Source of the DNA: Aestuariivita sp. | GTDB taxonomy: Bacteria > Pseudomonadota > Alphaproteobacteria > Rhodobacterales > Rhodobacteraceae | Direction of reading: 5' to 3' | NCBI GenBank assembly: GCA_026710055.1 | Contig: JAPORV010000439.1 | Span: 1-61,903, forward strand | DNA: 61,903 nt | Shown: one piece after another, positions 18,886-54,170 of the stretch | Position numbering within the stretch: position 1 is the first letter of the stretch | How the letters are laid out: each line of letters starts with the position of its first letter | The notes under the pieces: model-generated | Seen by the model: the letters and a program-made list of their open reading frames with translations, nothing else | Database searches by the model: none | What the model was told of the DNA's origin: nothing | Translations under genes and position numbers: made by a program

Positions 18886-19200
18886 ATGAATGACCTTAAT
18901 AATCGAGATCATGAACTGGATAAACGGTTAGCCGTCATGGAGGAACGCATGAATACGTTGAACGCAGAAAATACCAGTGCACAAGAACGGCTTAATGCGA
19001 CCTTGGAACGATTTCGTACTGATATGGCCAATTCAAAAACTGATGCCGAACGGCGCGACAAGGAGGCCGAAAAGCGCGACAAAGAAGCCGCGCGCCGTGA
19101 AACGGCCAATACCCGGTGGATCATGGCCAGCATCCTGGCCGCAGCGGGGTTGATTGTCATTATTCTGGGCTTTATGCTTCGTTTACCTGTTGCCTCTTAA
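18886..19200 (+). CDS. Small tail-anchored coiled-coil membrane protein (family B, copy 1 of 4)
   Basis: 104 aa. It has MNDLNN..LAVMEERMN..ERLNATLERFRTDM, charged RRDKEAEKRDKEAARRE repeats and a C-terminal TM segment (WIMASILAAAGLIVIILGF). It is a paralog of 48086..48331, 49498..49689 and 51687..52019. A TTGCAA-N17-TACATA element lies upstream. Confidence 0.7.
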   Translation: MNDLNNRDHELDKRLAVMEERMNTLNAENTSAQERLNATLERFRTDMANSKTDAERRDKEAEKRDKEAARRETANTRWIMASILAAAGLIVIILGFMLRLPVAS

Positions 19201-35011: not shown

Positions 35012-35151
35012 TTTACAGAATATTGATATTCGGTTTAAAATTATGATTAGTGTGATATTGATTTGTTTGGAAATATAAAAGAAAAGAAAATTCCGAATTT
35101 ACTATTTGAGTAAACAATTAAACTCAGGGTAAATGATGAGCGAGCATAGGG

Positions 35152-35167
35152 TTTACAGCTGTAAACT
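35152..35167. promoter_or_regulatory. parS centromere site (GTTTACAGCTGTAAAC)
   Basis: Perfect 16-bp palindrome. Confidence 0.75.
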
Positions 35168-35816: not shown

Positions 35817-36047
35817 TCAGGTGCGCAGTCTGAGCAACTGATCAACAGTCAGGGCGAAAATACCGAAAAACAAATGACACGCAACCTTCGCCGCACCCCG
35901 AACCCGGAGATGACGACCCCCATAGCTGTCCTTTAACGCCGCGTTCACTCGCTCAACACTAGAGCGTTGCTTGAACCGCTCTTTAGACGGGTCAACATGA
36001 CCCGTTGACCGTAAAGCAAGGGCCTCAAGACGCCGATGGGGGCTAAT
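35817..36047 (-). mobile_element. DDE transposase C-terminal remnant (IS4/IS5-like), 5'-truncated
   Basis: An open frame with no start reads ISPHRRLEALALRSTGHVDPSKERFKQRSSVERVNAALKDSYGGRHLRVRGAAKVACHLFFGIFALTVDQLLRLRT*. The VERVN-LKD--GGRH-RVRG--KV--HL-FG--ALT-DQL tail is typical of IS4/IS5-type transposases. It abuts the nrdJ stop codon. Confidence 0.7.
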
Positions 36048-40220: not shown

Positions 40221-40406
40221 GGAATTATACCGCTGACATGACGGATAAATACACAATCTTGCGCCACGCGCGCCGCGAAGCCGCGAAGCCGCGAAGCCGT
40301 ATGTGATTCAGCGCGGTATCGCGCTGACAAGCCCTCTTTATTATTTTTATCGCCCCGCGTGGCATTTTGGCACCAGATGAGATGTCACTGGCGCAAGCGC
40401 CTGTTA

Positions 40407-41327: not shown

Positions 41328-42865
41328 ATGTCGTGTTCTTTACAGGCCTGATGGTCATCGTAGGCGTCTCCATGACGGCCTGTGATCAGGAGCTACGTAT
41401 GGAAACGGCCGCGGGTTTGCGAGATGGTCAACGCTTGTCGGCCGCGCAATACGACTTGTTACGGTCACAACTTAATGGCGAGGTTCATCGTGAAGAACGC
41501 CCCTTTTACGGCGCGGCTGTGGCGGTCGAACGGGGGGATGTGTCGGGGGAGCCTTTACCGGACGCGGTGGAAGGTGTTCGCGGTATTACCCTGCGGATGC
41601 CGGGTCAATCCACCGTCACAACAATTGCGGCTGCAGTGACCGACGCTACCGATATTCCGATTAATATTCGCACCCGTTATGTGGTTGGGGGCGGTGCTGA
41701 CAGCCGTGTGATTGATGTGCCGATCGGCACCAGAATGCGCGTGAATTACGAAGGGTCATTATCTGCATTTCTTGACCGCCTGGCCGCTCGAATGGATGTC
41801 GGGTGGTCATATGACGGTACCATCATCACGATTGATCGCATGATTCGGTCAACCTGGCGAGTATCCTTGCCGTTGGGTGCTACTCGCTTTACACGGAGCA
41901 CGGACGGCGAAAGTGGTCACACGCTCTCTACCGAACTCACTTTAGATCCATGGTCGGATCTTGAGCAACGGCTGGCGCCGTTAGCGCCCCCACCAGCTCG
42001 CATTACGCTATCGCCCGATACCGGGCGCGTGGATGCATTTGGTCCCCCGTCCGTTCACGCCGCCATTCGTGCCGTTTTGGATGATGTGGCAACGACTGCG
42101 AAGACACGCATTGGCCTCGATGTTGCGGTGTACTTTGTGGATAGCGATAAAGCGGATGAATTCGGTGTCAGTACGGCTCTTGACGGGCTTCGCGTGGGCG
42201 AATTTGCGGGGCGTGATGTAACAGCAGATATTGCGTTTCGAAGTTCTGTGGGCGGGTTATCGTCGTTTCTGGCCGGGCAAGCCGGTGGCGGGATTGTTCT
42301 CTCACGGGGCAACAGCTTTTTTAGTTTTGAAGCACTCGCACGTAACAGTGCTGTTGTGGACTATCGTCTAGCGTCATCGGTGGCTCAATCCGGGGTGATC
42401 ACTCCGATTGGTCTGACCGAAGAACGCAGTTATATTCGCAGTGTCACTCGGGAGCGGGCTGACGATGATAATCCAGGGACGGTGACTTATGAAATCGGCG
42501 AGATGGAAACAGGCTTAACGCTAGCCGCACTTCCCCGATTGGTTGACCATCGACAAATTCATCTTTCGTTGACGTTTTCACAACGGGCGTTTCGCGGATT
42601 TGATCCCGATGTACTGACCCGCACAGGGACGATACAAGCTCCCACAATTGATAATCGACAAATTACAAACGAGACCGTGTTATCGCCAGGCGAAACGCTG
42701 GTGTTGGCGGGATATGAACAAGACATCGCAGAACAGGGTGATAGCGGCGCCGGATTTTTTCGCCGTATTGGATTGGGTGGAAAAACCGAAGCAAAACGAC
42801 GGAAAGTCCGCATGGTATTGATGGTTCGCCCCACACTCATTGCGAGCCGGAGAGACAACACATGA
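41324..42865 (+). CDS. pilN: PilN-type secretin lipoprotein (type IVb pilus outer-membrane channel)
   Basis: 513 aa with a lipobox-like signal (VGVSMTAC). The secretin-like C-terminus is PGETLVLAGYEQD...GFFRRIGLGGKTEAKRRKVRMVLMVRPTLI. Confidence 0.65.
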   Translation: MNVVFFTGLMVIVGVSMTACDQELRMETAAGLRDGQRLSAAQYDLLRSQLNGEVHREERPFYGAAVAVERGDVSGEPLPDAVEGVRGITLRMPGQSTVTTIAAAVTDATDIPINIRTRYVVGGGADSRVIDVPIGTRMRVNYEGSLSAFLDRLAARMDVGWSYDGTIITIDRMIRSTWRVSLPLGATRFTRSTDGESGHTLSTELTLDPWSDLEQRLAPLAPPPARITLSPDTGRVDAFGPPSVHAAIRAVLDDVATTAKTRIGLDVAVYFVDSDKADEFGVSTALDGLRVGEFAGRDVTADIAFRSSVGGLSSFLAGQAGGGIVLSRGNSFFSFEALARNSAVVDYRLASSVAQSGVITPIGLTEERSYIRSVTRERADDDNPGTVTYEIGEMETGLTLAALPRLVDHRQIHLSLTFSQRAFRGFDPDVLTRTGTIQAPTIDNRQITNETVLSPGETLVLAGYEQDIAEQGDSGAGFFRRIGLGGKTEAKRRKVRMVLMVRPTLIASRRDNT

Positions 42866-44331
42866 CGACGGCCGCCTTTTTTCAACGCGCCCGTGCGCTA
42901 CTCAAGGTTCCGCAGCCGAACCGGTCTGCACGGGCACCGGACGCGATCCAGTCTGTACCCGCACAGCCGGCAGACAGTACTGACATGATCTCATCAAACC
43001 TTGTCACTGCTGTCGCTCCCGACGGCACCCGACTTGTTGGCGGTCTCACATGGGACGTGGTATCTGGCGCTGAAGCGCCTGCATTGCGCAGACAGGCTCC
43101 TGCCGTTTTGCGGATGGAATTTCGTCGTGCTAAACTATCGCCGTCTTTGTGGGATGCCCAGCAGGGCGATCTGCCAGGATCATTGTTGGTTAATTTGGCT
43201 ACAAACCTTATCGCACAGGATGCTGTAATGGCTGGTACGTGGGTGTTTATAACGGAAATACCCGCGCCCCACCGTCCGCCGCGTTTGTGGGTGGCCATCG
43301 CGGATCTTAAGGAGAATGATGACAACTCTGATGATCTGCTCACCATTGTGCCGCGCCCTCAGACCGAACATATTCTTGACACCGCTGATGAAGCCTTGGC
43401 GTTGCTTCAACGCGAGATGGAAACAACTGAGATTGCGGGGTTAGCGGTTCGGTGGTTGCCCGAACATAGATCGCTACAGCCCGATCAAACGCATCGCGGT
43501 GCAATGATTGAGGGGTTTTCGCATGTCGCGCAAACGGTGCCACTATGTGATGTAAATTTTGTTGCAAGACATCATGATCATCCGCATTTTGTGGCACCAA
43601 AACACATTCCACTCCCCCTCATTGGTTGGGGATCAGCCGCCGCCTGCGCCCTGTTTGTGGGGTTTTTTGGCATCATTCCGTTTATGCAGGAATGGCTGAA
43701 AGAACCGCCACCCGCACCCCCTGACATGATTACTGTTCAACCCTCTCCAGGCGCTTTTGGAAATGTTTGCCTGACCGGTCTGACAGATTGGTGGCCCCGC
43801 ATTGTGGGGTGGGATGTTCAATCCAGCGGATGCGCATTAACAAACCATGTCCCGAAAGAGCTGGCGTTGCCAGTCGCAGCACCGACATCTGTTGCGACGC
43901 AACCCCTGGTGATCTGGCGCCAACTTCGCCCCACCCCAGGGCGTAATACGGTTCTCGCGCAATCGGCTGCTCATCAGGCTATCGGCACATGGCCGCACGA
44001 AATTCATCGCACCGATACTGGCGGTTTGGTGTTGTACAAAACAGCTGAATTACCTTTTATTGAGGCAAATGAGACAACAGACTTTGGATCAATTGATCTG
44101 GAGAGCTTACGGTCTCAACTAGCTATTTTGTGGGCTCATGCGCCCGATTCTGTTCGTCTGGTGGATCGTGAAATGACGATATCGGAACCGGGCACCCCTC
44201 GCGATGTCTTTGAACGCGTGGCACGTATTCCGTTGCTCATGCCGCTTCACTTTAGTCAGCCAGGAAACATGATGCTCACATCAGTATATCCGCGACAAAT
44301 TCCGATGATTGATTTTAAGGGCGGGAAGTAA
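42862..44331 (+). CDS. PilO-like pilus accessory protein (bitopic membrane protein)
   Basis: 489 aa with a single central TM segment (LIGWGSAAACALFVGFFGIIPF). The call rests on synteny (after the secretin gene, as in R64/PAPI-1 pil loci) and on ATGA coupling to pilN. No diagnostic motif was seen. Confidence 0.35.
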   Translation: MTTAAFFQRARALLKVPQPNRSARAPDAIQSVPAQPADSTDMISSNLVTAVAPDGTRLVGGLTWDVVSGAEAPALRRQAPAVLRMEFRRAKLSPSLWDAQQGDLPGSLLVNLATNLIAQDAVMAGTWVFITEIPAPHRPPRLWVAIADLKENDDNSDDLLTIVPRPQTEHILDTADEALALLQREMETTEIAGLAVRWLPEHRSLQPDQTHRGAMIEGFSHVAQTVPLCDVNFVARHHDHPHFVAPKHIPLPLIGWGSAAACALFVGFFGIIPFMQEWLKEPPPAPPDMITVQPSPGAFGNVCLTGLTDWWPRIVGWDVQSSGCALTNHVPKELALPVAAPTSVATQPLVIWRQLRPTPGRNTVLAQSAAHQAIGTWPHEIHRTDTGGLVLYKTAELPFIEANETTDFGSIDLESLRSQLAILWAHAPDSVRLVDREMTISEPGTPRDVFERVARIPLLMPLHFSQPGNMMLTSVYPRQIPMIDFKGGK

Positions 44332-44366
44332 TGTTAATTTTAACCCCCGAAAATAAGCAGAGGATA

Positions 44367-44654
44367 TTATTGGTTCATAATCGAAAACTGCAAAAGTGTA
44401 AAGCCGAGGACATTATGAGCTATCATAACGCCAATGACCCATATCATAAAGGTGACCTTCAAACTCATTGTATCAATTTTGGATTCCAATGTTGTGATAT
44501 CTTTCTTCACAAGCTTAATATCAGATTTTTGCGCCACGTTATTCGTAGCGATGGTATGAATCGCCTCTACCGTGGCTTCCGCTTGTTGTTGCGTGAAGCC
44601 TGCGGACGTCAATTTTCGCGTTTCTGCCAGCGTATTGACCGCGACATCAGCCAT
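44367..44654 (-). CDS. DUF1640-like tail-anchored coiled-coil protein (family A, copy 1 of 4)
   Basis: 95 aa. MADVAVNTLAETRKLTSAGFTQQQAEATVEAI..., a coiled coil and a C-terminal TM segment (FMIWVIGVMIAHNVLGF) match the DUF1640 pattern. The gene is antisense to the pil operon, in a 377-nt gap between + strand genes. Confidence 0.65.
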   Translation of the reverse strand: MADVAVNTLAETRKLTSAGFTQQQAEATVEAIHTIATNNVAQKSDIKLVKKDITTLESKIDTMSLKVTFMIWVIGVMIAHNVLGFTLLQFSIMNQ

Positions 44655-44708
44655 GCAATTCCCTTTAACATCAATGATGATTATATCTTTACCACATCAT
44701 CCTTTCGG

Positions 44709-46805
44709 GTGCAAGCGCTTGCGCTGACAGCGATCATATTGCTGATGAGCCTGCCGGCTCAAACGTTCGCACAAACCCAAGACACACTTGGTATTGATTG
44801 TGATAAACCGCGCTTAACAGAGTCCGGAAAATTAATATTTGGCGATGATGGATCGCATCGCGCTTTGTGTGAAGCCGACCGACGCACCGCACTCACGTAC
44901 GTGGGTCTCGTCACAGAGACACGCGATCGGCTTCGGCAAGCGTTAACGGTATTACCACCGCCTTTATGGGATCATTTAGCGCAACATTTGCGTACACAGA
45001 ATACACTTAATGACTGGCGTTATACAGACGCGAACATTCTCACGCAGCTGCAAACGACATCTCCCACTGTTCACGCGATCAGCAGCTATTGGGTTGACGG
45101 CATTCTTCACGACAGCACGATTGACGCATCCTGGCATCGTTTTGTGAAGGCACGCGCCTGCGGCACGGGACGGCAGGCCGTTATTCTGATTTGGCTTGAT
45201 CCAACAGTCATCAGAGATCGGTGGACACCAGGGATGGTACAGCGCACCGTCCGAGCATGGAAAGCAAAGACTGAAGCACAATACGCTTTTGACGAATCCA
45301 TTCCACGTGTTGTTACCACCGCGCGGCAGCTACAGCGGTCTGACGGCCGGCTTGAGGATATTTCCAGCGACAGTACTGTTGTGACCTGCTTTAGCGCGGT
45401 TCCCACTGGTGCATTGGCCTTCACGTTGTCACTGCGGTTTAAGACCAAATTTGGTACGATTCTGGAGGCGTGCACGGGAGCGAATGAAATCGGCGTTCGA
45501 AAATTATCCTGGATGAGACGTAATTCGGTCTACATTGTCCCACCTGATGCGATCACAGATGCTGGTGACCCACATCCTGATCGTGGTGAGCCGTTATTGG
45601 GACAAAGTGCTGCCTTACCATCTGTGAACGACTCAAATGTTGCTGACGGTGCGTTTTTAACGTCATCAAGTTGCCGACAGCCGCGAACATTGGATGCGGT
45701 TCGTACGGCGGACTGCCCTGCAACAGTGGCTGGTCAAGCTGTTCAAGGTAAGCATGTGCGGACATTTCGATTTCGGGAAGTACAGGATGATCCAGTGGAT
45801 GAGTTTCGCATTGACCTCGTGCCTGTTCGTCCCGGCACCAGCGATCTTGGTGTGATTATTCCACCTGGAGAGCCGCATGCTGTGTGGGACGAAACAACAC
45901 TTTTTTGCAATCCCGGCACAATTCCGCCCTCTGATGCTCCGCCCATCCCTGACCGCGAAGCAGATGATTGGGGATACCCTCGCTGTACGGCGGCGCATGG
46001 CGGGCGTTTTAACCTCGGTGATCGTTATGGGTATGTGCAAACGGTGACTTATCCACCAGGTTGGCCGGTTGATGAGATGGAAGTTCGTCATATTGATGAT
46101 GATTGTTTTCGGCTGGATTGGGTGACAGGAACGCAATACCGGCCGGGTCCGGCATGTCCCGCCGGGTATACAGGCGCGATTATTGAGGCACGTAATTTAC
46201 AATGGCAAGATCGCCAGTGGGCTGTTTCCGACAATGAACATAAATCGGCGTGGAACCGACGGTTGTCGGACATCTCTAACCCGACGGAAGCAGGCACGGT
46301 GTATGATGCTAGCGGGACGGGGCTTGATCGTGTTGTTCTTGTGCGCGATTGGTATGTGGTCATGACCAACTGTGCGGCACCGGTGGCCGCAAGTGACACA
46401 CAAACCCGCGACGGCGGTGCCTGTCCAGCAGGGGAGGTCGGTGCGATTACCGAAGGGCGGAGCTTTAGCTGGTACAATCCCGGCACGCCTACCCCCGCTT
46501 GCGGGACGCTTCCGGAGGCAGGGCGTCTTTTGTGCACTTCCGTCAGCGCCCAGCAATCACCTGTTCCTGTTAGCCGATCAGTGGACGCCGCGGCGGCCGC
46601 ATACGATGCTGGTCCCACCAGTACCAGCTGGTGGGATGCAGTGACACTCTCCCGTGACTGGCATGAGATCAGCAATACCTGTACGCCACCATCAGAATCG
46701 GAGGAAGGCTATACAGATAATGATAATGATGGTGTCAGCGTCGGCATTGATTCAGATGATAGTGATCCGAGTGTGGGTAATGAGAACGGAAATACTGACT
46801 ACTGA
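44709..46805 (+). CDS. Large secreted Cys-repeat protein with Asp-rich C-terminus, unknown function
   Basis: The in-frame GTG 44709 yields a signal peptide (QALALTAIILLMSLPAQTFA/QTQ). The first 126 codons of the tracked ORF (from 44331) are an antisense shadow of 44367..44654. An internal repeat occurs as ACPAGYTGAIIEARN...VRDWYVVMTNC and ACPAGEVGAITEGRS...SRDWHEISNTC. The C-terminus is DNDNDGVSVGIDSDDSD. Confidence 0.55.
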   Translation: MQALALTAIILLMSLPAQTFAQTQDTLGIDCDKPRLTESGKLIFGDDGSHRALCEADRRTALTYVGLVTETRDRLRQALTVLPPPLWDHLAQHLRTQNTLNDWRYTDANILTQLQTTSPTVHAISSYWVDGILHDSTIDASWHRFVKARACGTGRQAVILIWLDPTVIRDRWTPGMVQRTVRAWKAKTEAQYAFDESIPRVVTTARQLQRSDGRLEDISSDSTVVTCFSAVPTGALAFTLSLRFKTKFGTILEACTGANEIGVRKLSWMRRNSVYIVPPDAITDAGDPHPDRGEPLLGQSAALPSVNDSNVADGAFLTSSSCRQPRTLDAVRTADCPATVAGQAVQGKHVRTFRFREVQDDPVDEFRIDLVPVRPGTSDLGVIIPPGEPHAVWDETTLFCNPGTIPPSDAPPIPDREADDWGYPRCTAAHGGRFNLGDRYGYVQTVTYPPGWPVDEMEVRHIDDDCFRLDWVTGTQYRPGPACPAGYTGAIIEARNLQWQDRQWAVSDNEHKSAWNRRLSDISNPTEAGTVYDASGTGLDRVVLVRDWYVVMTNCAAPVAASDTQTRDGGACPAGEVGAITEGRSFSWYNPGTPTPACGTLPEAGRLLCTSVSAQQSPVPVSRSVDAAAAAYDAGPTSTSWWDAVTLSRDWHEISNTCTPPSESEEGYTDNDNDGVSVGIDSDDSDPSVGNENGNTDY

Positions 46806-46862
46806 AGCTGATCGGAGATGATAGCGTGATGGCGGTTTAATTGTAATTGGTGGAGATTTGTT

Positions 46863-47648
46863 ATGTGGTTATTTGTGCAAATGGCAATTATTTTGGCCAT
46901 GGTCGCGTCACCGACGTTGGCTCATGAAGAGTTCACGCCGCTCCCGATTGATGTTGAATCGGCCATTGTTCCCATGAGTAATAAAGAGGTGAATGACTAC
47001 CCGCCCTACCGGCATCCTCCAGTTAACATTCTGTCAAAAGACCAACCCGTTTTGTTTAGGAATGCCGTTTTTGTGAATGACCGGAGCCGCTATGATTTTT
47101 TAAAGAACTATCCCGCTCATACGCTTGAAATTGTTGTGTTTCGCGCAAACGGTTTTTTCGTGTCGTGTACACCGGATCGTAAAACCAACTATCGTGGTAA
47201 GTACGCGATTGGAAACCGCCGCTACTTTTTTGCTGAGATTCGACACACCACACACTGGTATCCCGCAATGACGTTTAAACGTCAAGTCTACGGCATCCGT
47301 GAAGGTCTTTTCCCTCTATATGATGGTGAATCAGGTAGACTCTTACAATGGCGTAAGAAACCGCGTCGTTCTGAATCTCATTTATACTATCCGAGTAAGG
47401 CAGGCCATTTGCAGTACGATATTCCTCGCGCTGTCTACGACCTTTGTCCGGACTTTCCGAGCGCGGATGAACTCGGCCTTGAAATTAATGAAGCGCAAAC
47501 GGCGAACACGTACTACGACCTCATTGCGCAACATCCCGGCAATCGTATCTTGCGTCCGGATTTAGTGACACCGAATGCGCACAAATATGGTGGCCCGAAT
47601 GGTTCTGAACCACAACCGTCACAAAACGATAGCGTTAATTCAAAGTAA
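46863..47648 (+). CDS. Secreted hypothetical protein
   Basis: 261 aa with a signal peptide (MWLFVQMAIILAMVASPTLA/HEE). No motif was recognised. Confidence 0.55.
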   Translation: MWLFVQMAIILAMVASPTLAHEEFTPLPIDVESAIVPMSNKEVNDYPPYRHPPVNILSKDQPVLFRNAVFVNDRSRYDFLKNYPAHTLEIVVFRANGFFVSCTPDRKTNYRGKYAIGNRRYFFAEIRHTTHWYPAMTFKRQVYGIREGLFPLYDGESGRLLQWRKKPRRSESHLYYPSKAGHLQYDIPRAVYDLCPDFPSADELGLEINEAQTANTYYDLIAQHPGNRILRPDLVTPNAHKYGGPNGSEPQPSQNDSVNSK

Positions 47649-47686
47649 GGGTGATGGAGATGCGTGGGTTTCAGCGAACGAAGGGA

Positions 47687-47911
47687 TTATCCCAGCAACG
47701 TGAACACGAGGGTAAACATGCTGATCACGTAGGCAAGAAGGCCGGTCAAAACAAAGTTGGTGTGCCGCCTGAAGATGGCTTTTATTTCCGAGCGCAAAAG
47801 GATTTGGCGGGTATCAATCTTGGCGTCTATTTTCTTATCGAGTGTATCTTCAAAGCCGGCATCGCGAAGTCTTTGAAATTCTCGGTGTGTATCAAAAGCT
47901 GTATCGGCCAT
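47687..47911 (-). CDS. DUF1640-like tail-anchored protein (family A, short copy)
   Basis: The likely start is MADTAFDTHREFQRLRDAGFED (ATG 47911), and a C-terminal TM segment is present. A conserved GGCTTGCGC-N17-TAGGTA promoter-like element lies upstream. Confidence 0.6.
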   Translation of the reverse strand: MADTAFDTHREFQRLRDAGFEDTLDKKIDAKIDTRQILLRSEIKAIFRRHTNFVLTGLLAYVISMFTLVFTLLG

Positions 47912-48085
47912 TCTGTACCCCAATATATTTCTTATACCTATCTTAACATTGTGCAATGCGCAAGCCGCCTGTTCAGCGGAAATACGCTCTCACGTGTGAG
48001 TGTTCTCTCTTGTGAGAAAAGAAGGAAAAGAAGTGGTCTATTGACGACAAAGTCAGGTCATCAAGACATTTATTGGCGTGATACG

Positions 48086-48331
48086 TTAAGACGGAACGCT
48101 GATCAAGACAGCGAGGATGCCCGTACAGACCGCAAACAACGCAATCATCATAGCAATCATGCGTGTTTCACGTTTTGCGGCGTCGGCATCCCGTTTTGCC
48201 GCTTCGATATCACGCTTTGCCGCATCTTCTTTCATGCTGCTCATTTTAACTTCGATATCTGTACGAAGGCGTTCAAAAGCAGCATTCATTCGCTCAAGCG
48301 CTGTTTCCGTTTGAGCATGATTGGTCTTCAT
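48086..48331 (-). CDS. Tail-anchored coiled-coil protein (family B, copy 2)
   Basis: 81 aa from the internal ATG. It contains TETALERMNAAFERLRTDIEVKMSSMKEDAAKRD plus a C-terminal TM segment. The 20 upstream in-frame codons (INNTPDTRELEKRIAVLEER) are family-conserved but begin with ATA (48389..48391), not ATG. Confidence 0.6.
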   Translation of the reverse strand: MKTNHAQTETALERMNAAFERLRTDIEVKMSSMKEDAAKRDIEAAKRDADAAKRETRMIAMMIALFAVCTGILAVLISVPS

Positions 48332-48505
48332 ACGTTCCTCCAGTACGGCAATTCGTTTCTCAAGCTCGCGAGTGTCCGGCGTGTTATTTATGCGTGTATT
48401 GTATCACTAGAATCACTTTTTGTCAAACGACGCTCACGTCTGACCGATCGGTGTTACCACGCATTACGCGCGAGCGTTCTGGTCACATCGTTGACGTCGG
48501 CAACC

Positions 48506-49072
48506 ATGGTGCTTTCCGCACCAGTACCAGCGCCTAACAGCGCAGAAGCGTGGCTTGATCAGGTCGAACGCACGTTTGTGCAATCCAGCGGTCACGAAAT
48601 CACAATTAACTTTAATGGTGATACGAAGACAGGCATCTTCTATGCCCCTTTAGCACAGTTTTGGGTGCTGAATGGTCACGATGTTTCAGAGGTGGCTTAT
48701 TTGCATCGACGCGAAGGCACTTTACAGTTTCGCTTTCCGGATATGTTCTGGGTGGTCGCAAAAGGGCAATTTTCGGCTGCGGTTTCAGAGGCAAGCGCCT
48801 CACCGTCTGCATTAGCGTTATTTCACGACAAGCTACTGACACAACCACTGGTCGCGGAATTAGCTGGCATACCGGTGGGGAGTCTGTTTCACCCACCTTT
48901 GTTGGGGTCGTCCACAGGTCTTATTCAAATACCGCAGGAAACTCCTTCAGCTCAAAGAGCCATGATCTGGACGAGTTCTGGAGATAAGATTCATATTACA
49001 CGACGGGATGGCGTGATGGTGACGTTGCACTGGACGGTCGTGGACGCTGCGTTGACGGAGGAGGATCAATGA
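48506..49072 (+). CDS. Hypothetical protein (pil-cluster, unknown)
   Basis: This is the C-terminal 188 codons of the tracked ORF 47651..49072. The upstream part of that ORF is an antisense shadow of two minus-strand genes. ATG 48506 is the first start after them. The stop overlaps the next tracked ORF (ATGA at 49069). Confidence 0.4.
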   Translation: MVLSAPVPAPNSAEAWLDQVERTFVQSSGHEITINFNGDTKTGIFYAPLAQFWVLNGHDVSEVAYLHRREGTLQFRFPDMFWVVAKGQFSAAVSEASASPSALALFHDKLLTQPLVAELAGIPVGSLFHPPLLGSSTGLIQIPQETPSAQRAMIWTSSGDKIHITRRDGVMVTLHWTVVDAALTEEDQ

Positions 49073-49104
49073 GGGTGGGACCATATGAATATCTGGAACG
49101 AGAC

Positions 49105-49422
49105 TTAGTTCGTTCCGGGAAAAATGAACTCAAGATAGACGATGAGCACGACAGCGAGGGCAATTCTGGTTCCAATGATCCATCGTATGATTCGGGTTGC
49201 AGACTGTGCCACGTCCGCTTTCGTCGCGACCGTTTCCTTCAAGCACGCGATATCGGTCTTGGTCGCGGCCGTTTCCTTCAAGTACACGATATCCGATTTG
49301 AGGGCTTTAAATTCGCCTTTGATCGCCATTGTATGGTTTTCAATTTCGGTCTTAGTCGCTGTTTTCAATGGCTCAATATCGGTCTTCATCTTCGCAACTC
49401 TGCCCCTTCCCGCGTCAGCCAT
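49105..49422 (-). CDS. DUF1640-like tail-anchored coiled-coil protein (family A)
   Basis: The likely start is MADAGRGRVAKMKTDIE (ATG 49422). It contains an 11-residue TKTDI/ETVATKADV-type repeat and the C-terminal RWIIGTRIALAVVLIVYLEF. GGCTTGCAC-N17-TAGATA lies upstream. Confidence 0.6.
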   Translation of the reverse strand: MADAGRGRVAKMKTDIEPLKTATKTEIENHTMAIKGEFKALKSDIVYLKETAATKTDIACLKETVATKADVAQSATRIIRWIIGTRIALAVVLIVYLEFIFPGTN

Positions 49423-49497
49423 TCTGTGATTCGGTATATTTCTCATATCTATCGTGACATCATGCGATGTGCAAGCCGTCTGTTCAGTGGAAATACG

Positions 49498-49689
49498 TTA
49501 AGACGAGACGTTGATCAAGGCAGCGAGGATGCCGGTACAAACAGCAAACAAGGCAATCATGATTCCAATCAAGCGTATTTCACGTTTTGCCGTTTCTATA
49601 TCGCGCTTCGCCATGTCAGTACGAAGGCGTTCAAAGGCGGCATTCATTCGCTCAAGTGCTGTTTCGGTTTGTGCATGTTTGGCATTCAT
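49498..49689 (-). CDS. Tail-anchored coiled-coil protein (family B, copy 3, shortened)
   Basis: 63 aa from the internal ATG. It is near-identical in its N-terminal region to 48086..48331 and has the same upstream conserved codons, again starting at ATA (49747..49749). Confidence 0.55.
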   Translation of the reverse strand: MNAKHAQTETALERMNAAFERLRTDMAKRDIETAKREIRLIGIMIALFAVCTGILAALINVSS

Positions 49690-49767
49690 CCGCTCCTCCA
49701 GTACGGCAATTCGTTTCTCAAGCTCGCGGGTATCCGGCGTATCGTTTATACGTTTCTGGAAGGAGAC

Positions 49768-50322
49768 TTAGTTCGTTCCGGGGAAAATAAACTGAAAATA
49801 GACGATCAGCACGCCGGCGATGGCAATGGCGGTTCCAATGATCCATCGCGTGGTTCGGGTTTCAGACTGTGCCAGTTTTGCTTCAAGTTTGCTGAGTTCC
49901 GCTTTCGTCGCGGCCGTTTCCTTCAAGTACGCGATATCCGATTTGAGGGCTTTAAATTCGCCTTCGGTCGCCACTTTAAAGTTTTCAATTTCGGCCGTGG
50001 TCGCCACTTTAAAGTTTTCAATTTCGGCCGTGGTCGCCGCTTTAAGGCCCTCAATTTCGGCCGTAGTCACTGTCTTCAGTTGCTCGATATCGGTTTTGGT
50101 CGCCGATTTAAGGCCCTCAATTTCGGCCGTGGTCGCCATTTTCAGACTTTTAATTTCGGCCGTGGTCACTGTCTTCAGTTGCTCAATATCGGTTTTCGTC
50201 GCCACGCCCCCAATCAATACAGCATTCATGGAATGAATAATGGCTTCGGCTTTTTCGTCTTCAAAGCCGGCATCTCGGAGTCGCTGAAACTCCCGGTGGG
50301 TATCAAACGCGGTTTCGGTCAT
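49768..50322 (-). CDS. DUF1640-like tail-anchored coiled-coil protein with expanded 11-aa repeat stalk (family A)
   Basis: 184 aa. MTETAFDTHREFQRLRDAGFEDEKAEAII is the classic DUF1640 N-terminus. Seven tandem 11-aa units of the (A/V)TTAEIE-LK type follow. The C-terminal TM segment is RWIIGTAIAIAGVLIVYFQF. GGCTTGTCA-N17-TAAATT lies upstream. Confidence 0.7.
   Translation of the reverse strand: MTETAFDTHREFQRLRDAGFEDEKAEAIIHSMNAVLIGGVATKTDIEQLKTVTTAEIKSLKMATTAEIEGLKSATKTDIEQLKTVTTAEIEGLKAATTAEIENFKVATTAEIENFKVATEGEFKALKSDIAYLKETAATKAELSKLEAKLAQSETRTTRWIIGTAIAIAGVLIVYFQFIFPGTN
49966..50196. repeat. Seven tandem 33-bp repeats (coding, in frame within 49768..50322)
   Basis: Unit boundaries fall at 49966, 49999, 50032, 50065, 50098, 50131 and 50164. 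Two unit types alternate: ggtcgcc-ctttaa-g----caatttcggccgt and -gtcactgtcttcagttgctc-atatcggtttt. The first two units are identical. Confidence 0.9.
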
Positions 50323-50415
50323 AATGTGATCCAGATTTTACGGTATTTCTATTTAATTTATCGTAACATTACATCAGTGACAAGCCTTTGGCTATCACGT
50401 TCTCTCAAGACAGAC

Positions 50416-51528
50416 ATGTTTTTCGCAAGACATTGTTTTGCTGGTCACTCCCGATTCACGTTCTTACTGCATTCAACGTTTCTTGCTATTCCCGTCGCTG
50501 TCAGTTTGGGTTTCTTTTCTCCCGCTTTAACGCAACAACCAATCGGCGCGACCTTTCAAGCACGTGATGACCGGGCAACTTTAGGCGATTGTCCTGCACA
50601 ACTCTTGCGACAAGCGTGGGCAGAAATGCTCCCGTTAGAAACCGCCGCGGTCGAACGCGAGGTCTTGGCATTGTGCACTGAACGTGCCGAGACCATCGCC
50701 CAATTCCTTCGCGCTCAAGAGAAGCTCAATACAACACTTGCCTTAGCGGTGTCTCCGGATGTTTCGACGAGTGGGTCTGCGTCTGATCAGACGGTAACCC
50801 GTCTTCGGGAGGATGTCACACATCTCCAGACTCGTATTACGCGGTTGGAGGAAGGCCCGGCACAACCGGAAACTGACGCTACGCTTTCACGATTGCGTAA
50901 TGAGTTGCGAGAGGTTGAAGCCGACTTACGGAGTGCTGAATTCGCACAACAGAGTGCTGCGGCACCGCCCGTGACAAAACCAGATCGCGAAAGCGACTCA
51001 TCGCTCAGCACAGACGATGACAATGCCGCCATTACGCCACGCCGGACAGTCGATCAACCATCTCCGCCCGGGCTTGAGACGCCCGATGAAACCGATGTCC
51101 GGGTGTCTGAACCCGCATCACTGCCCCATAACACATTGCCGATTGACCCTGATTGTGCCCCACCCACACTCTCGGTCAATTATGCTGTTCGTGGGGATCG
51201 CGATTGGACAATCGTCCTTCAGGAATCTCGTGAAGTGCTCATCCGCATTCCCCGTTCTCCGGAGGGAGGCAGCGACGACCCGATATCCGAAACAGAGGCG
51301 ACGTTTGATGCTGTTTGTCAACCTGAGGTCGATCCGCCCCTTCATGTGACTTTAAACGATGTGCTCCCGAGCGGTTTGATCGTGCAGAGCGTCACATCAG
51401 CCGGTGTGGAAATTCGCGATCCTGATAATGATGCTGTGGAAATATACCCGTTTGCGACAGACAGCTCGCCTGGTGATCTGCGGTGGGATGTTTACAACGT
51501 GCCCACCGTTTGGGAGGGCGGCGAATGA
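50416..51528 (+). CDS. PilP-like pilus biogenesis protein (signal peptide, coiled coil, Pro-rich linker, C-terminal beta-rich domain)
   Basis: ATG 50416 is the first start after the antisense-shadow part of the tracked ORF 49069..51528. A signal-like segment (FLLHSTFLAIPVAVSLGFFSPALT) is present. The position before the ATPase gene matches pilP in R64/PAPI-1 loci. Assignment to the PilP family is weak. Confidence 0.4.
   Translation: MFFARHCFAGHSRFTFLLHSTFLAIPVAVSLGFFSPALTQQPIGATFQARDDRATLGDCPAQLLRQAWAEMLPLETAAVEREVLALCTERAETIAQFLRAQEKLNTTLALAVSPDVSTSGSASDQTVTRLREDVTHLQTRITRLEEGPAQPETDATLSRLRNELREVEADLRSAEFAQQSAAAPPVTKPDRESDSSLSTDDDNAAITPRRTVDQPSPPGLETPDETDVRVSEPASLPHNTLPIDPDCAPPTLSVNYAVRGDRDWTIVLQESREVLIRIPRSPEGGSDDPISETEATFDAVCQPEVDPPLHVTLNDVLPSGLIVQSVTSAGVEIRDPDNDAVEIYPFATDSSPGDLRWDVYNVPTVWEGGE
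51443..51501 (+). repeat. 59-bp direct repeat, copy 1 (3' end of the PilP-like gene)
   Basis: tatacccgtttgcgacagacagctcgcctggtgatctgcggtgggatgtttacaacgtg matches 52247..52305 at 55 of 59 positions. Confidence 0.9.
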
Positions 51529-51686
51529 GATACCGCTCTGCAGATCGCCCTCAACCGCTCAAATCGTCTATGAACAGGCGTGCCGTCGGCTGCACAATTG
51601 ACGCCACCGATTCTTTTGGCATGGTTGGTCGTGCGTTCCTTCAGCACGGCAAGTTGGTTTCTGAGAAATCACATGTAAGGGTAAGG

Positions 51687-52019
51687 TTACATATTAATCA
51701 TAACGGCAATGATCGCTGTCGCGGCACTAATTGTAGCAATCGTCAGGAAAATCATTCGCGTTTCAAATTTTGCAAACTCGGTATCGCGTTTCGACAGTCT
51801 CTCTTTGATATCCGTCATCTGTTTAATATTGTCGGTATCGCGTTTCGCGGCATCTTCTTTCATGCTGCTCATTTTAACTTCTATATCCGCCCGAAGGCGT
51901 TCAAAGGCAGCATTCAATCGCTCGAGCACTGTTTCAGTTTCGGCATGCTTCGTCTTCATGCGTTCCTCCAGCACGGCAAATTGTTTTGCCAATTCGTGAA
52001 GATCAGGTTCGTCATTCAT
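51687..52019 (-). CDS. Tail-anchored coiled-coil protein (family B, copy 4, full length)
   Basis: 110 aa. It contains MNDEPDLHELAKQFAVLEERMKTKHAETETVLERLNAAFERLRADIEVKMSSMKEDAAKRD and a C-terminal TM segment. It lies between the 59-bp direct repeats. Confidence 0.7.
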   Translation of the reverse strand: MNDEPDLHELAKQFAVLEERMKTKHAETETVLERLNAAFERLRADIEVKMSSMKEDAAKRDTDNIKQMTDIKERLSKRDTEFAKFETRMIFLTIATISAATAIIAVMINM

Positions 52020-52246
52020 TTTTTTAACCTAACGTGCTTACCACTAATCGTCAACTGCCCTGTCAGGTGTTGTGAGGGTCGGCCAGTCTCCCCTCTATCA
52101 TCAGAGAACTTCTGTTCATTCAATCGTAAAAGGATGTCCTATGCGTCGTGACCACTATAACGGCAAGACCCAAGACGATCAGCAGGTACGGTCATCCAGT
52201 GAACCAGCAGTGCTTCAAGGTGATAACAGACGCCATGGTTCTGAAC

Positions 52247-52305
52247 TATACCCGTTTGTGACAGACAGCTCGCCCGTTGATCTGCGGTGGGATGTTTACA
52301 ACGTG
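52247..52305 (+). repeat. 59-bp direct repeat, copy 2 (orphaned original 3' end, still ATGA-coupled to the ATPase gene)
   Basis: tatacccgtttgtgacagacagctcgcccgttgatctgcggtgggatgtttacaacgtg encodes YPFVTDSSPVDLRWDVYNV. Copy 1 encodes YPFATDSSPGDLRWDVYNV. Confidence 0.9.
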
Positions 52306-52316
52306 ACAGATGAGGG

Positions 52317-54170
52317 ATGAGCGTGATGGCCAATCATAGCGACATGGCGCGGAAAGAGGCAGACGTGCAGATTTGTGACTTTAATGCGACGCGCATCAGC
52401 CCTGATCGTTCTCCGATTTCGTCAGCGATTCCCGTTCGGGCGCTTGTTCCGACGGACATGCGCGAGCCTGGAGAGGACGAGGCGACGGAACAGCGCTGGA
52501 GTGATAAGGCGAAAAAGTTTCTGGCGGCGCTCACCGGGCCGGAAGTGCCGACGGTGACGAAGGGAGGAGCTTTTGATATCGGCACTGAGATATTTCGGAA
52601 GTCATGTGCTGTCCTCGAAGATGGTTCAGTGTGCTTTGTCCGTGCTTATCATACTGCGGACATTGCTGCGGAGTTGGTGCAGTTGCGTAAAGATTATGTA
52701 CTACCAGACGAAACCATGCGCCGCGCCGTGTCACTTGCGGAAATGGCGGCATTTTATGGTCGATCAAGCGACGCTATGGTAACGCATCGTCCAACATCAG
52801 GGCAAATTCGACTTCAAAAGGCTTTGGCGGAAGCAGCCTCGCTGGGGGCCTCTGACATTAAGCTCGTTGAGCGAGCCACGCACGGATTATTGCGGATTAA
52901 AGTAGGGGCGGGTGAATTTACGCATGGATCGCAATGGCAAGTTGATGAAGTTAAGGAAGCGATTGCCTGGATTTACGGTCATCGTGACGGCGGTGACGGG
53001 AAAGCAACACTGATAAAAGGACAGCCCGCTCCTTTTTCGATTGGTCAGGCGCAAAAACTACCCGCCATGCCAAAGGGAATTGCGGCGATGCGTGGTCAAA
53101 TTGCCTGGCATGGTGATGTGCAGAATTTTCTCAATTTGCGACTGTTGCCAGAAGCGAACGCTGAGAATTATGCGGATATTGCGGGTTTAGGGTTAGAGGA
53201 CGATATTCTAGAGGCGTTAGCGATCGAGCGGCGATCAGAAGCGGGACTTGTCATTATTGGTGGGTCGACCGGTGACGGAAAATCGACGACGCTCGTGCGC
53301 AATCTTGAGTGTCTGTATGAGGAAAGAAGCGGGCAAGTCTCGCTGTATACGATTGAAGACCCAGTCGAGTATCCTGCGTCGGGTGACGGCGTGATTCAAT
53401 TTCCGGTAAAGGGAGGGAAAACGCCGCAGGAACGCCGCGCCAATTACAGTCAGATGCTGATGACATTTGTGCGCACGAACCCTGATATTGGGATGGTGTC
53501 GGAAATTCGGTCAGCGGATGACGTGAACGAAGTGCTCCATTTCGTGACATCGGGACACAAGATCTACACGACTGTTCATGCCAACTCGGCCAACGGTATT
53601 TTATTTCGGTTGATTTCGCTGGGTGTGTTGCCCACGGAATTGACGGGGCCTGATGTTGTGAATCTGGTCATGCGCCAGAAGCTCGTGCCTCTTTTATGTC
53701 CCGCGTGTTCAGAAGACTTGACGGGGCCTGCACTAGCGCGTGTGACAGAATGGTTGGAGCAAGACGCGATTTTTATGGATCGGGTTTCGCCGGCAACATG
53801 GCGCCCGAAGCGCCGTCATCGTGCGGGTTGTGATGTGTGTCTGCGGCCTTTTGCGCAGTTAGCGGGTGCGCCTGCTGAGACCGCACGCGCGGCGTGGGCA
53901 GGATATGCAGGACGGCGGGCCACCGCTGAGTTCATTCGCTTGGATGATATTTATCGTGGCTTTGTGGGCCAGCATGATCAACTCGGTGCTCACCAGCATT
54001 GGATCACGTCTGTTGCAAACGGGGGGATGGGAGGCATTCCCCTCATGGCGCGCATTCGCCGGCTTATAGCGCAAGGGGCGGCGGATTATGAACAAGCCAC
54101 AAACGAAACTCTTCCCGAGACCGTGCCAGTGTTAGCACGACCATCAAAGACATCAGAGGCGCCGGCATGA
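52317..54170 (+). CDS. pilQ: PilQ-type (GspE/PilB family) type IVb pilus assembly ATPase
   Basis: 617 aa with Walker A (IIGGSTGDGKSTTLVRNL), an Asp box/Walker B region (NPDIGMVSEIRSADD) and a His box (HKIYTTVHANSANGILFRL). A tetra-Cys cluster (CPAC...CDVC) is also present. Confidence 0.85.
   Translation: MSVMANHSDMARKEADVQICDFNATRISPDRSPISSAIPVRALVPTDMREPGEDEATEQRWSDKAKKFLAALTGPEVPTVTKGGAFDIGTEIFRKSCAVLEDGSVCFVRAYHTADIAAELVQLRKDYVLPDETMRRAVSLAEMAAFYGRSSDAMVTHRPTSGQIRLQKALAEAASLGASDIKLVERATHGLLRIKVGAGEFTHGSQWQVDEVKEAIAWIYGHRDGGDGKATLIKGQPAPFSIGQAQKLPAMPKGIAAMRGQIAWHGDVQNFLNLRLLPEANAENYADIAGLGLEDDILEALAIERRSEAGLVIIGGSTGDGKSTTLVRNLECLYEERSGQVSLYTIEDPVEYPASGDGVIQFPVKGGKTPQERRANYSQMLMTFVRTNPDIGMVSEIRSADDVNEVLHFVTSGHKIYTTVHANSANGILFRLISLGVLPTELTGPDVVNLVMRQKLVPLLCPACSEDLTGPALARVTEWLEQDAIFMDRVSPATWRPKRRHRAGCDVCLRPFAQLAGAPAETARAAWAGYAGRRATAEFIRLDDIYRGFVGQHDQLGAHQHWITSVANGGMGGIPLMARIRRLIAQGAADYEQATNETLPETVPVLARPSKTSEAPA

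Follow-up and report, generated by a model that had tools for sequence, protein, structure and literature searches.

Small membrane-protein genes nested antisense in a plasmid pilus operon whose reading frame appears to be kept open across them

The window analyzed here, a stretch of 61,903 nt, represents a repABC conjugative plasmid that carries seven small minus-strand genes and one remnant between pilO and pilQ of its pilus (pil) operon. An eighth small gene, of family B, lies at 18886-19200, outside this stretch. Long plus-strand ORFs run through the same DNA, and the question is which strand encodes protein there. We favor, at a probability of roughly 70%, the reading drawn from sequence that the small genes are real, independently transcribed membrane-protein genes nested antisense in the pilO-pilQ stretch, and that the pil frame is selected to stay open across them.

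The operon resembles the R64-type (type IVb) thin-pilus operon in its TcpQ/LysM protein, secretin, PilO-like protein, T2SSE ATPase, GspF-like platform protein, and PilS-type pilin, and the gene order of R64 is the same as that of these shared genes. It differs by four extra genes of no known family, X1 to X4, between pilO and pilQ, with the cassettes among them; to our knowledge, R64 has no equivalent of X1-X4 and the nested cassettes. The pil genes are functional as judged by their dN/dS against the related locus L008 (0.06-0.18 for the five measurable genes; 0.15 for the PilO-like gene). Orthologs of the PilO-like gene are present in L008-L011, L014, L016-L019, L091, and L092. The fixed points of the stretch are as follows.

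42862..44331, plus strand: PilO-like gene, 3' of the secretin gene, upstream boundary of the cassette-bearing stretch
46863..47648, plus strand: X2, 261 aa, with an N-terminal signal-peptide-like segment
52317..54170, plus strand: PilQ-type assembly ATPase (PF00437, E 1.7e-38), downstream boundary

The small genes and their two families

44367..44654, minus strand: family A gene, 95 aa, DUF1640-like, divergent head type
47687..47911, minus strand: family A short form, 74 aa from ATG, keeping only the 22 N-terminal head residues ahead of a short coil and the anchor
48086..48391, minus strand: family B gene, ancestral start now ATA at 48391, internal ATG at 48331 giving 81 aa
48398..48426, minus strand: promoter-like site TTGACA-17-TACAAT with TG upstream; 6 nt separate its end from the ancestral start of the family B gene
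49105..49446, minus strand: headless family A copy, 113 aa (105 aa from 49422), dN/dS 0.93
49498..49749, minus strand: family B gene, ancestral start now ATA at 49749, internal ATG at 49689 giving 63 aa
49768..50322, minus strand: full-length family A gene, 184 aa, with head, V-A-T-K-T-D neck motif, 11-residue repeats, and anchor
49966..50203, no strand assigned: tandem 33-nt repeats that code for the 11-residue stalk units of the 184-aa gene
51629..51660, minus strand: remnant of a family B 5' end (NQLAVLKER), repeat D6, 88% identical to 51956-51987
51687..52019, minus strand: full-length family B gene, 110 aa, with a promoter-like motif whose end lies 6 nt upstream of the ATG
18886..19200, plus strand: un-nested family B copy between relaxase and resolvase genes, used as internal control

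An ORF check of the window recovers all eight ORFs at the coordinates and strands given by an earlier sequence-only reading, including the antisense placement in the pil operon, and tblastn with both families against the whole window returns the same eight places and none further. That reading had called all eight intact. The ORFs exist, but 49105-49446 has lost its head, 47687-47911 is shortened, and two family B genes carry an ATA start. The division into two families stands, and so does their description as small proteins that combine a coiled coil with a hydrophobic anchor at the C-terminus.

Family A is built from a head, a stalk, and a membrane anchor, a layout that for the 184-aa protein draws in part on an AlphaFold model, and 55 homologs were found. 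Its proposed DUF1640 likeness is supported by matches to PF07798, phrog_17872, and PDB 6h9l, although just one of the four copies in the window exceeds the Pfam cut-off of 33.5 bits: the 184-aa protein scores 47.8 bits (CCDC90-like/DUF1640) and matches PDB 6h9l at E 1.5e-6, whereas 44367-44654 reaches 22.1 bits, 49105-49446 reaches 18.5 bits, and 47687-47956 has no match in Pfam. For the 95-aa protein of 44367-44654, phrog_17872 is an additional match along the whole protein (E 8.9e-9). DUF1640/CCDC90-like proteins (PF07798), which include human MCUR1 and CCDC90B and archaeal Kcr-0859 (PDB 6h9l), likewise have a small N-terminal head, a stalk, and a C-terminal anchor. Their beta-layer motif [aliphatic]-A-T-K-[polar]-[D/E] at the stalk start corresponds to V-A-T-K-T-D in the window, and the coiled coil carries 11-residue A-T-x-x-[D/E]-I-E repeats; the motif and the range of the family have been described (PMC4786415). 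The 33-nt tandem repeat that encodes these units in the 184-aa gene is confirmed. The short form 47687-47911 and the 5' end of the 184-aa gene have a 70-nt repeat in common (D7, 81% identical), and L092 holds a copy of the short form with a 91% identical protein.

Family B is unannotated and has only the anchor in common with family A. It comprises at least 622 cluster representatives, 340 homologs were found, and most occurrences lie outside pil operons. The four members in the window share 44-67% identity and 16 invariant alignment columns and are connected by the DNA repeats D1, D4, and D6, which bears out their grouping; D6 also confirms the suspected 5' remnant at 51629-51660. At 48086-48331 and 49498-49689, ATA occupies the position where relatives start with ATG, and by their sequence these genes can only be translated from the internal Met21, the sole usable start, behind a GGAGGA ribosome-binding site.

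By dN/dS, homologs, and conserved promoter motifs, families A and B are real genes. Substitutions concentrate at minus-strand third codon positions, and dN/dS is 0.10-0.25 in both families: 0.13-0.24 for 44367-44654 against the L008 copies, 0.16 for 47687-47911 (for the shared N-terminus only), 0.25 for 49768-50322, 0.19-0.21 for 48086-48391, and 0.10 for 49498-49749 against the L008 and L002 copies. Predicted promoter motifs are preserved among diverged copies, un-nested ones included, which supports the sequence-only reading that these genes have promoters of their own. The site at 48398-48426 matches the consensus at 11 of 12 positions and keeps its geometry in the family B copies of L002 and L006; 44367-44654 has a promoter-like motif and a ribosome-binding site upstream. 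By upstream motif comparison, 49498-49749 is without a promoter of its own, and the region has no more promoter-like or terminator-like sites than shuffled sequence does.

The nested genes could instead be dead remnants whose purifying signal predates their insertion, with only the pil-strand ORFs at work. Truncation or loss of the start codon affects several copies, and the headless one shows neutral evolution relative to the 184-aa copy (dN/dS 0.93) and is probably decaying. For the set as a whole this explanation is highly unlikely, as pairs in which both members are nested (window or L002 against L008) still show dN/dS of 0.10-0.25 at dS of 0.6-1.4 and retain their promoter motifs, and the nested head sequence is conserved among loci with a PilQ identity of 42-63% to the window.

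Plus-strand reading frames across the cassettes

44331..46805, plus strand: X1 long ORF, 824 aa, start overlapping the pilO stop, codons 13-108 antisense to the first family A gene
47651..49072, plus strand: X3 long ORF, 473 aa, first ~285 codons antisense to cassette 2
49069..51528, plus strand: X4 long ORF, 819 aa, first ~449 codons antisense to cassette 3
51439..51501, plus strand: first copy of a 63-nt direct repeat at the X4 3' end (D8), 94% identical to 52243-52305
51525..52151, plus strand: relay ORF 5, antisense to the 110-aa family B gene, ATG overlapping the X4 stop behind GGGAGGG
52141..52320, plus strand: relay ORF 6, 59 aa, duplicating the X4 3' end, carrying the pilQ ribosome-binding site, and including 52243-52305

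The long plus-strand ORFs had been dismissed as spurious, a view that the data do not bear out: stop-complement codons are avoided, ribosome-binding sites lie at the junctions, and the ORFs share the frame of the pil gene that follows. Each plus-strand ORF starts at the stop of the upstream gene, with ATGA overlaps and ribosome-binding sites at the junctions. The X3 ORF opens 2 nt past the X2 stop and continues into X3 without a change of frame, the X4 ATG overlaps the X3 stop (ATGA) behind GGAGGAGGA, and cassette 4 is spanned by a relay from X4 through ORF5 and ORF6 to pilQ. The counterpart of ORF6 is called as a 59-aa gene in L002.

The nested genes lie opposite the pil frame codon for codon, so that TTA, CTA, and TCA in them would be pil-frame stops. 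None of the 168 Leu/Ser codons at risk in nested copies is one of these three (0 among 77 Leu and 36 Ser codons in the window and L002 copies), compared with 24-25% of Leu and Ser codons in other genes of the plasmid. In 13 nested genes, A-ending codons are otherwise common (114/584 in other four-fold families and 203/298 for Lys/Glu/Gln) but are missing from CTN+TCN (0/130) and TTR (0/38; Fisher 1.9e-11 and 1.3e-17); these counts come from paralogous copies of common ancestry and are not fully independent. Single genes are significant alone, e.g., the 261-aa copy of L008 with 38 Leu/Ser codons at risk. Un-nested copies do use TTA/CTA/TCA (18/153; TTA/TCA in 3 of 15 Leu/Ser codons at 18886), and no ORF of at least 120 aa is listed on the strand opposite 18886-19200.

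This pattern bears on the possibility that the cassettes are real and the plus-strand ORFs are untranslated shadows, open by chance or codon bias, with the pil genes starting internally. Chance openings are most frequent in the codon-aligned antisense frame, amino-acid constraint is absent from the plus frame (dN/dS near 1), and in-frame internal starts lie near hydrophobic segments (GTG 44709, ATG 48506, ATG 50416). The conserved part of X1 begins at the hydrophobic segment near 44709, and the cassette-free X1 ortholog of L009 has only ~45 residues ahead of this segment; X4 was likewise aligned with its orthologs. Such a shadow origin is nonetheless unlikely, given the selective loss of the three stop-creating codons, the 702 nt of spacer within the plus-strand ORFs that are stop-free as well, and the strongest ribosome-binding sites, which are found at the upstream junctions rather than at internal starts (the X4 ATG at 50416 has none in front).

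From these codon patterns, the pil-strand frame is selected to stay open across the cassettes, and the peptide it encodes there is itself unconstrained. The pil frames being kept stop-free across the nested genes, both DNA strands would be under selection. An X4 N-terminal extension of up to ~450 unconstrained residues looks costly and speaks against the favored reading. The plus-strand tiling is imperfect in L019 and L015, and the high-GC loci L011, L015, and L017 add little weight because long antisense ORFs are expected there by chance.

Recurrence and turnover of the cassettes

The arrangement is not confined to the window. Nested cassettes recur in L008, L092, L011, L013, L015, L017, L018, and L019, always antisense and never before X2, whose upstream junction is cassette-free in every locus compared. 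Antisense DUF1640 genes recur within this pil operon family, invariably in the same orientation and down to a PilQ identity of 42%, in other Paracoccaceae/Rhodobacteraceae assemblies and one Rhizobiaceae assembly. In the accessible literature, no bacterial DUF1640 gene is placed antisense within an operon.

Presence of the cassettes varies among related pil loci, and five operons have none (L009/L010, L091, L012, L014, and L016). In L009/L010 and L091, pilO-X1-X2-X3-X4-pilQ are tightly packed without family A or B genes, which supports the earlier proposal of insertion into the operon. From these comparisons the cassettes are accessory. The array is also dynamic: plasmids that are 99.7-100% identical elsewhere differ by a 1252-bp cassette block and in repeat copy number (L004 is one 33-nt unit short), and cassette 4 lies between the two copies of the 63-nt repeat derived from the X4 3' end. 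The X2 of L092 is 97% identical to that of the window, with flanking genes at 44-78%.

Presence/absence polymorphism, flanking duplication, many copies per genome, and a Y1 transposase with a TnpB-like gene near family B copies in L006 would fit cassettes moved by a dedicated recombinase, similar to integron cassettes, miniature transposons, or IS200/IS605-borne cargo. We consider this very unlikely, as no terminal inverted repeats or attC-like pairs surround the cassettes and the stretch contains no recombinase gene. The duplications, of 63 and 133 nt, are long and made of host-gene sequence, the L002 block holds chimeric pil-gene fragments, and the deletion junction overlap is just 6 nt. Arrays would rather grow, shrink, and move between junctions and plasmids through duplication, unequal or illegitimate recombination, and deletion, without a transposase.

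Proposed mechanism and role

In the favored reading, antisense genes have colonized the pilO-pilQ stretch at the dispensable cytoplasmic N-terminal tails of the single-span assembly proteins X1, X3, and X4 and at the X4/pilQ junction. Antisense would be the sole orientation that lets both messages stay open. With TTA, CTA, and TCA purged from the nested genes, pil mRNA could be translated without a break from the upstream stop across the cassette into the next pil gene or along a relay of short, coupled ORFs. Such continuous translation may maintain translational coupling and the production of X1, X3, X4, and PilQ, and may protect the pil mRNA from premature transcription termination. Published antisense overlapping genes of bacteria, such as the long antisense ORFs of Pseudomonas aeruginosa (PMC8850804; reviewed in PMC7457138), similarly have two coding frames on opposite strands of one DNA with selection on both. 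They differ in that a young frame is overprinted in an old gene, whereas here old, widespread genes appear inserted and the host frame is extended across them, constrained only against stops.

The DUF1640 proteins might also be pilus partners or regulators, for example as a cytoplasmic membrane stalk on the PilQ ATPase or on the X1/X3/X4 tails, with the antisense arrangement as a switch by which pilus and cassette expression exclude each other. The association that holds down to 42% PilQ identity, the grouping of nearly all nested heads in a tree of head sequences, the invariant orientation, and the cassette promoters facing the pil promoter are in line with this idea, which is compatible with the nesting mechanism and adds a function. 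It remains tentative and rather doubtful in view of the five cassette-free operons, the variable copy number and position of the cassettes, the prevalence of family B elsewhere, and close relatives that stand alone beside housekeeping genes (L001).

The closest analog of the nested proteins appears to be the Borrelia Bdr family, the sole match of the 184-aa protein in a plasmid-database search (E 5-7e-4, 24-26% identity). Bdr proteins are small, inner-membrane-associated proteins of unknown function with variable internal repeats, and many paralogs are encoded on plasmids and prophage plasmids, one by the replication locus (PMC10016077). The similarity is weak, and bdr genes are ordinary and free-standing rather than antisense-nested. 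The nested products would be inner-membrane proteins anchored at the C-terminus, with a coiled-coil stalk leading to an N-terminal head in the cytoplasm, and our best guess by analogy is a cytoplasmic scaffold tethered to the membrane, comparable to mitochondrial MCUR1/CCDC90B and Borrelia Bdr. As the cassette promoters face the pil promoter, expression of the cassettes and of the pilus should oppose each other.

The plasmid and its pilus operon

The entire 61.9-kb contig is a repABC-type conjugative plasmid. Besides RepC itself it has another gene whose product carries a RepC C-terminal domain, and it also encodes a resolvase, AbiU2, and an Eco57I-like methylase. Its pilus operon is type IVb-like and lies on the plus strand.

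Transfer, replication, and pilus genes of the plasmid
2306-6034, plus strand: type IV coupling protein (T4SS-DNA_transf, TraG-D_C) fused to DUF7146 and Toprim, 1242 aa
7609-18276, minus strand: 3555-aa MobA/MobL relaxase with Toprim and several helicase/AAA domains
30167-31564: RepC
40359-41327, plus strand: LysM/TcpQ protein
41324-42865, plus strand: secretin
42862-44331, plus strand: PilO-like protein
52317-54170, plus strand: T2SSE ATPase "PilQ"
54167-55327, plus strand: platform protein
55393-56106, plus strand: PilS-type pilin

A decaying pil operon is ruled out, since the five measurable pil genes have dN/dS values of 0.06-0.18 and are thus under purifying selection. For PilQ and for family B, the second of the two small-protein families described below, the named relatives come from marine Rhodobacteraceae/Paracoccaceae assemblies, e.g. 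Aestuariivita, Ruegeria, and Roseovarius. The genome scan gave matches with an alignment as query and none with the PilQ sequence alone. Exact look-ups of PilQ and of a 184-aa family A protein returned no record, megablast of 41000-55000 found no match in the plasmid collection, and no NCBIfam match of PilO or of the four unassigned pil proteins X1-X4 reached E 0.1. Rfam and tRNA scans of the window had no matches.

From about 18000 to 36000, GC content is 37-48% (one 1-kb bin, 54%) compared with 50-59% elsewhere. Because of this and of its content (resolvase, AbiU2, Eco57I-like methylase, a two-HATPase protein, and repC), the region looks like an accessory and replication block that was acquired separately. 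The 54.5-kb contig of a related plasmid (L006) encodes a 3571-aa product whose domain types match those of the relaxase; the fetched stretch covers the first 15 nt of its gene.

Two families of small anchored proteins

Minus-strand cassettes between pilO and pilQ encode small proteins of two families, A and B, both with a coiled coil and a C-terminal anchor. The sequence-only reading had described eight intact genes in the window. Eight ORFs are indeed present at the places it named, with no further A or B copies; intactness holds for only some of them. One A copy has lost its head and another keeps just 22 head residues, and in two B copies ATA replaces the start ATG, which leaves Met21 as the sole usable start. 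In front of Met21, the LEERM codons happen to spell a GGAGGA ribosome-binding site.

The proposed DUF1640 (PF07798) identity of family A is borne out by the 184-aa protein (49768-50322), which exceeds the 33.5-bit cut-off with 47.8 bits and matches profile positions 1-172 of 175. The three other A copies fall under the cut-off (22.1 bits, 18.5 bits, and no match). Full-length matches to phrog_17872 were obtained for the 95-aa product of 44367-44654 (E 8.9e-9) and for the copy on the near-identical sister contig L002 (E 3.1e-15). DUF1640 proteins are integral membrane proteins of prokaryotes and mitochondria, and their beta-layer motif, [aliphatic]-A-T-K-[polar]-[D/E], sits at the start of the stalk (Hartmann et al., PMC4786415). 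The 184-aa protein and its L002 copy have G-G-V-A-T-K-T/A-D at this place, and the 95-aa copy has the variant V-A-Q-K-S-D. The layout of the 184-aa protein comprises two short head helices, V-A-T-K-T-D, a 94-residue helix of 11-residue repeats, and a hydrophobic C-terminal helix (residues 43-136 and 140-179 for the two long helices of the AlphaFold model). The stretch W-I-I-G-T-A-I-A-I-A-G-V-L-I-V-Y-F-Q-F-I-F after the stalk is a putative transmembrane anchor. The repeats of the 184-aa protein match an archaeal protein (PDB 6h9l), and the CCDC90B head (6h9m) matches its sequence at E 0.25 only. Foldseek with the AlphaFold monomer found nothing under E 2 and is uninformative, as the single long helix dominates the model. 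Against NCBIfam, A and B proteins gave only matches far under the curated cut-offs.

In the sister contig L004, the 184-aa gene is short of exactly one 33-nt unit (window 49983-50035), so its stalk has 11 residues fewer and the fused plus-strand ORF has 808 aa instead of 819; stalk length thus varies within a population. In a neighbor-joining tree of the heads, all nested copies except that of locus L019 cluster with the three close homologs P0002-P0004, of which P0004 is a free-standing chromosomal gene.

Pfam, NCBIfam, and PDB searches with family B found no related family. It is nevertheless a real family: a word-indexed search found 340 homologs, and an exhaustive search found at least 622 cluster representatives (169 at E 1e-10 or better), often with several copies per genome or plasmid. 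Whole-protein profile comparison places it outside DUF1640. In hhalign, A and B align over 38 columns only, at the end of the stalk and in the anchor (probability 89%, E 2.4e-6), and their heads are unrelated. Five B copies stand beside replication (RPA), ParA, and Y1-transposase genes in L006:10001-18700, and three B genes and one DUF1640 gene lie in the chromosomal island L007:1-10300, where a resolvase and a type I restriction system are also encoded.

Among nested copies of the window, L002, and the related locus L008, substitutions concentrate at minus-strand third codon positions. The minus frame has dN/dS 0.10-0.25 at dS 0.2-2.0, and the same alignment columns read in the plus frame give values near 1. 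The headless A copy (dN/dS 0.93) is probably decaying. At least seven diverged B copies, of which the window has three, L002 one, and L006 three, share an upstream TTGACN-17-TAnnnT that stops 6-7 nt short of the ATG.

Regions of the B promoter motif in the window (-35/-10 pair)
52020-52064
48392-48436
18841-18885

The closeness of the -10 box to the ATG suggests leaderless mRNAs. A genes have a conserved CTTGCA-17-GATAnAT in front of them, which a free-standing chromosomal relative shares. A consensus promoter/terminator scan found sites no more numerous than in shuffled sequence; conservation of the motifs among copies is more informative. Judged from these substitution patterns and motifs, the small nested genes appear to be functional and to have their own promoters, and the convergent promoters are predicted to cause mutual interference with pil transcription.

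Insertion into the operon and the frames that cross the cassettes

The suggestion that the small genes are insertions is upheld by related loci without them. In L009/L010 (PilQ 74% identical) and L091 (78%), pilO-X1-X2-X3-X4-pilQ occupy about 5 kb with no A or B gene, and stops and starts overlap between genes. L008 (PilQ 84%) and L092 (78%) carry antisense cassettes of differing content at some of the shared junctions. A 63-nt segment from the 3′ end of X4 is duplicated around cassette 4, and L008 is cassette-free there. Turnover is also seen at close range: four metagenome contigs, 99.7-100% identical to the window, have at 47651-47656 a 1252-bp block that the window lacks, with one A gene, one B gene of full length, part of another A gene, and a chimeric X3/X2 fragment, and one of the four has one 33-nt stalk repeat fewer.

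An integron cassette or transposable element is an unlikely vehicle, as the stretch has no terminal inverted repeats, attC-like sites, or recombinase gene. Across 8.5 kb, the sole inverted pair from the repeat search is unrelated, and the flanking duplications (63 and 133 nt) consist of host-gene sequence. In the region L092:5607-7189, X2 is 97% identical in protein sequence to that of the window (46863-47648), compared with 44-78% for the neighboring pil genes, which argues for recombination between plasmids; L092 also has two adjoining X2-sized ORFs (261 and 262 aa). The likeness and the paired ORFs suggest that the surroundings of the X2-cassette junction recombined or were duplicated recently.

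Antisense DUF1640 genes between pilO and pilQ recur in L011, L013, L015, L017, L018, and L019 and are absent from L012, L014, and L016. L011 (Paracoccaceae, PilQ 63% identical) has two copies, L017 three, and L018 belongs to Rhizobiaceae (PilQ 42% identical). V-A-T-K-A/S-D is found in the nested copies of L011 (X2/X3 copy), L017 (third copy), and L018. The spanning plus-strand ORFs of L011 likewise start at ATGA overlaps, but nested ORFs in the L011-L019 carriers have 59-76% GC, so open frames there carry little statistical weight.

In the window, ORFs tile the plus strand all the way between the stop of pilO and the start of pilQ, with the natural X1-X2 spacer as the sole gap.

Plus-strand ORFs between pilO and pilQ
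44331-46805, plus strand: X1, long form
46863-47648, plus strand: X2
47651-49072, plus strand: X3, long form
49069-51528, plus strand: X4, long form
51525-52151, plus strand: relay ORF 5
52141-52320, plus strand: relay ORF 6

The long ORFs run antisense to the nested genes with codon boundaries aligned, and each continues in frame into the pil gene downstream. With the frames aligned in this way, only a TTA, CTA, or TCA codon in a nested gene can put a stop into the opposite frame. Among nested copies in the window and L002, these codons serve for 0 of 77 Leu and 0 of 36 Ser, compared with a share of 24% for Leu and 25% for Ser in the plasmid's other genes. In 13 nested genes (window, L002, L008), A-ending codons number 0/130 in CTN+TCN and 0/38 in TTR, against 114/584 in the other four-fold families and 203/298 for Lys/Glu/Gln (Fisher 1.9e-11 and 1.3e-17). 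Un-nested copies do use TTA/CTA/TCA (18/153; 3/15 in the window copy at 18886-19200). The 702 nt of spacer within the long ORFs are likewise stop-free. The earlier dismissal of these ORFs as spurious does not fit the missing codons and the in-frame pil continuation.

ATG 49069 overlaps the X3 stop behind GGAGGAGGA, and the internal ATG 50416 is without a ribosome-binding site; ATG 51525 overlaps the X4 stop behind GGGAGGG, and ATG 52141 the ORF 5 stop behind AAGGA. ORF 6 is a duplicated X4 3′ end that contains the pilQ ribosome-binding site. These junctions look like working coupling sites. By the measure of codon use, the pil-strand frames are kept open, and the array is an antisense overlapping pair with both strands open and under selection.

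Antisense nesting and its meaning

In the cassette-bearing loci examined, cassettes lie before X1, X3, or X4 or at the X4/pilQ junction; none lies before X2, and every one is antisense. In cassette-free orthologs of X1, X3, and X4, a hydrophilic start of about 45-55 residues precedes a hydrophobic segment, and in X2 the signal-peptide-like segment comes right at the start. If a gene were inserted in the sense orientation, its stop would terminate the host frame, while an antisense, codon-aligned insertion can leave both strands open. This constraint would account for the orientation, the codon phase shared by successive cassette genes, the missing codons, and the choice of sites. The benefit may lie in production of fused pil proteins, in translational coupling, or in shielding from Rho-dependent polarity. 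A tentative proposal, to which we give about one chance in five, is that such nesting is a general, unrecognized route into operons for small promoter-bearing genes. On this proposal, a gene would survive only when antisense, codon-aligned, and purged of TTA/CTA/TCA, with host translation crossing it, and the DUF1640 lineage of this pilus operon would act as a switch that is built in and works by convergent transcription, with pilus production as one state of the cell that carries the plasmid and a membrane scaffold as the other.

Published accounts of antisense overlap in bacteria typically concern a young frame that was overprinted on an old gene (PMC8850804, PMC7457138). In the window, by contrast, old genes appear to have been inserted and the host frame extended over them, as judged by comparison between loci. 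With its reversed history and comparative evidence, the arrangement is rated a variant of known antisense overlap and not a separate category.

The mitochondrial proteins MCUR1 and CCDC90B are membrane scaffolds whose head binds a partner; a 2019 paper in Structure reportedly proposed a head-neck-stalk-anchor model for them. Against the PADLOC defense models, six proteins gave two marginal matches only (E 0.001-0.003). Type I toxin-antitoxin, holin-like, and entry-exclusion roles find no supporting model or genomic context and are speculation. The nearest described analog is Bdr of Borrelia. Bdr proteins are repeat-containing and inner-membrane-associated, with many plasmid paralogs, one of them beside a replication locus (PMC10016077). 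In a tblastn search of the plasmid database with the 184-aa protein, two annotated bdr genes were the only matches (E 5e-4 and 7e-4), at 24-26% identity over 67-78% of the query, which may reflect common coiled-coil repeats. Family B proteins had no matches in the plasmid collection. In small MOBQ12 Col(156) plasmids of E. coli, an ORF annotated DUF1640 is listed right after mobA/mobL among the accessory genes, a possible further link of DUF1640 to mobilization regions (PMC13516913).

The window is among the cleanest comparative bacterial cases in which frames on opposite strands are both selected and the direction of their history is clear. It also carries a caution for annotation, as gene callers alternate between the 819/824-aa fused ORFs and the small genes, and neither alone is right. 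A testable rule follows: a synonymous TTA or TCA in a nested gene should break the host operon. Finally, the DUF1640 lineage and the anchor-sharing family B, with its at least 622 cluster representatives, are tied to conjugative plasmids of marine Alphaproteobacteria, a link that parallels the unexplained Bdr families of Borrelia plasmids.
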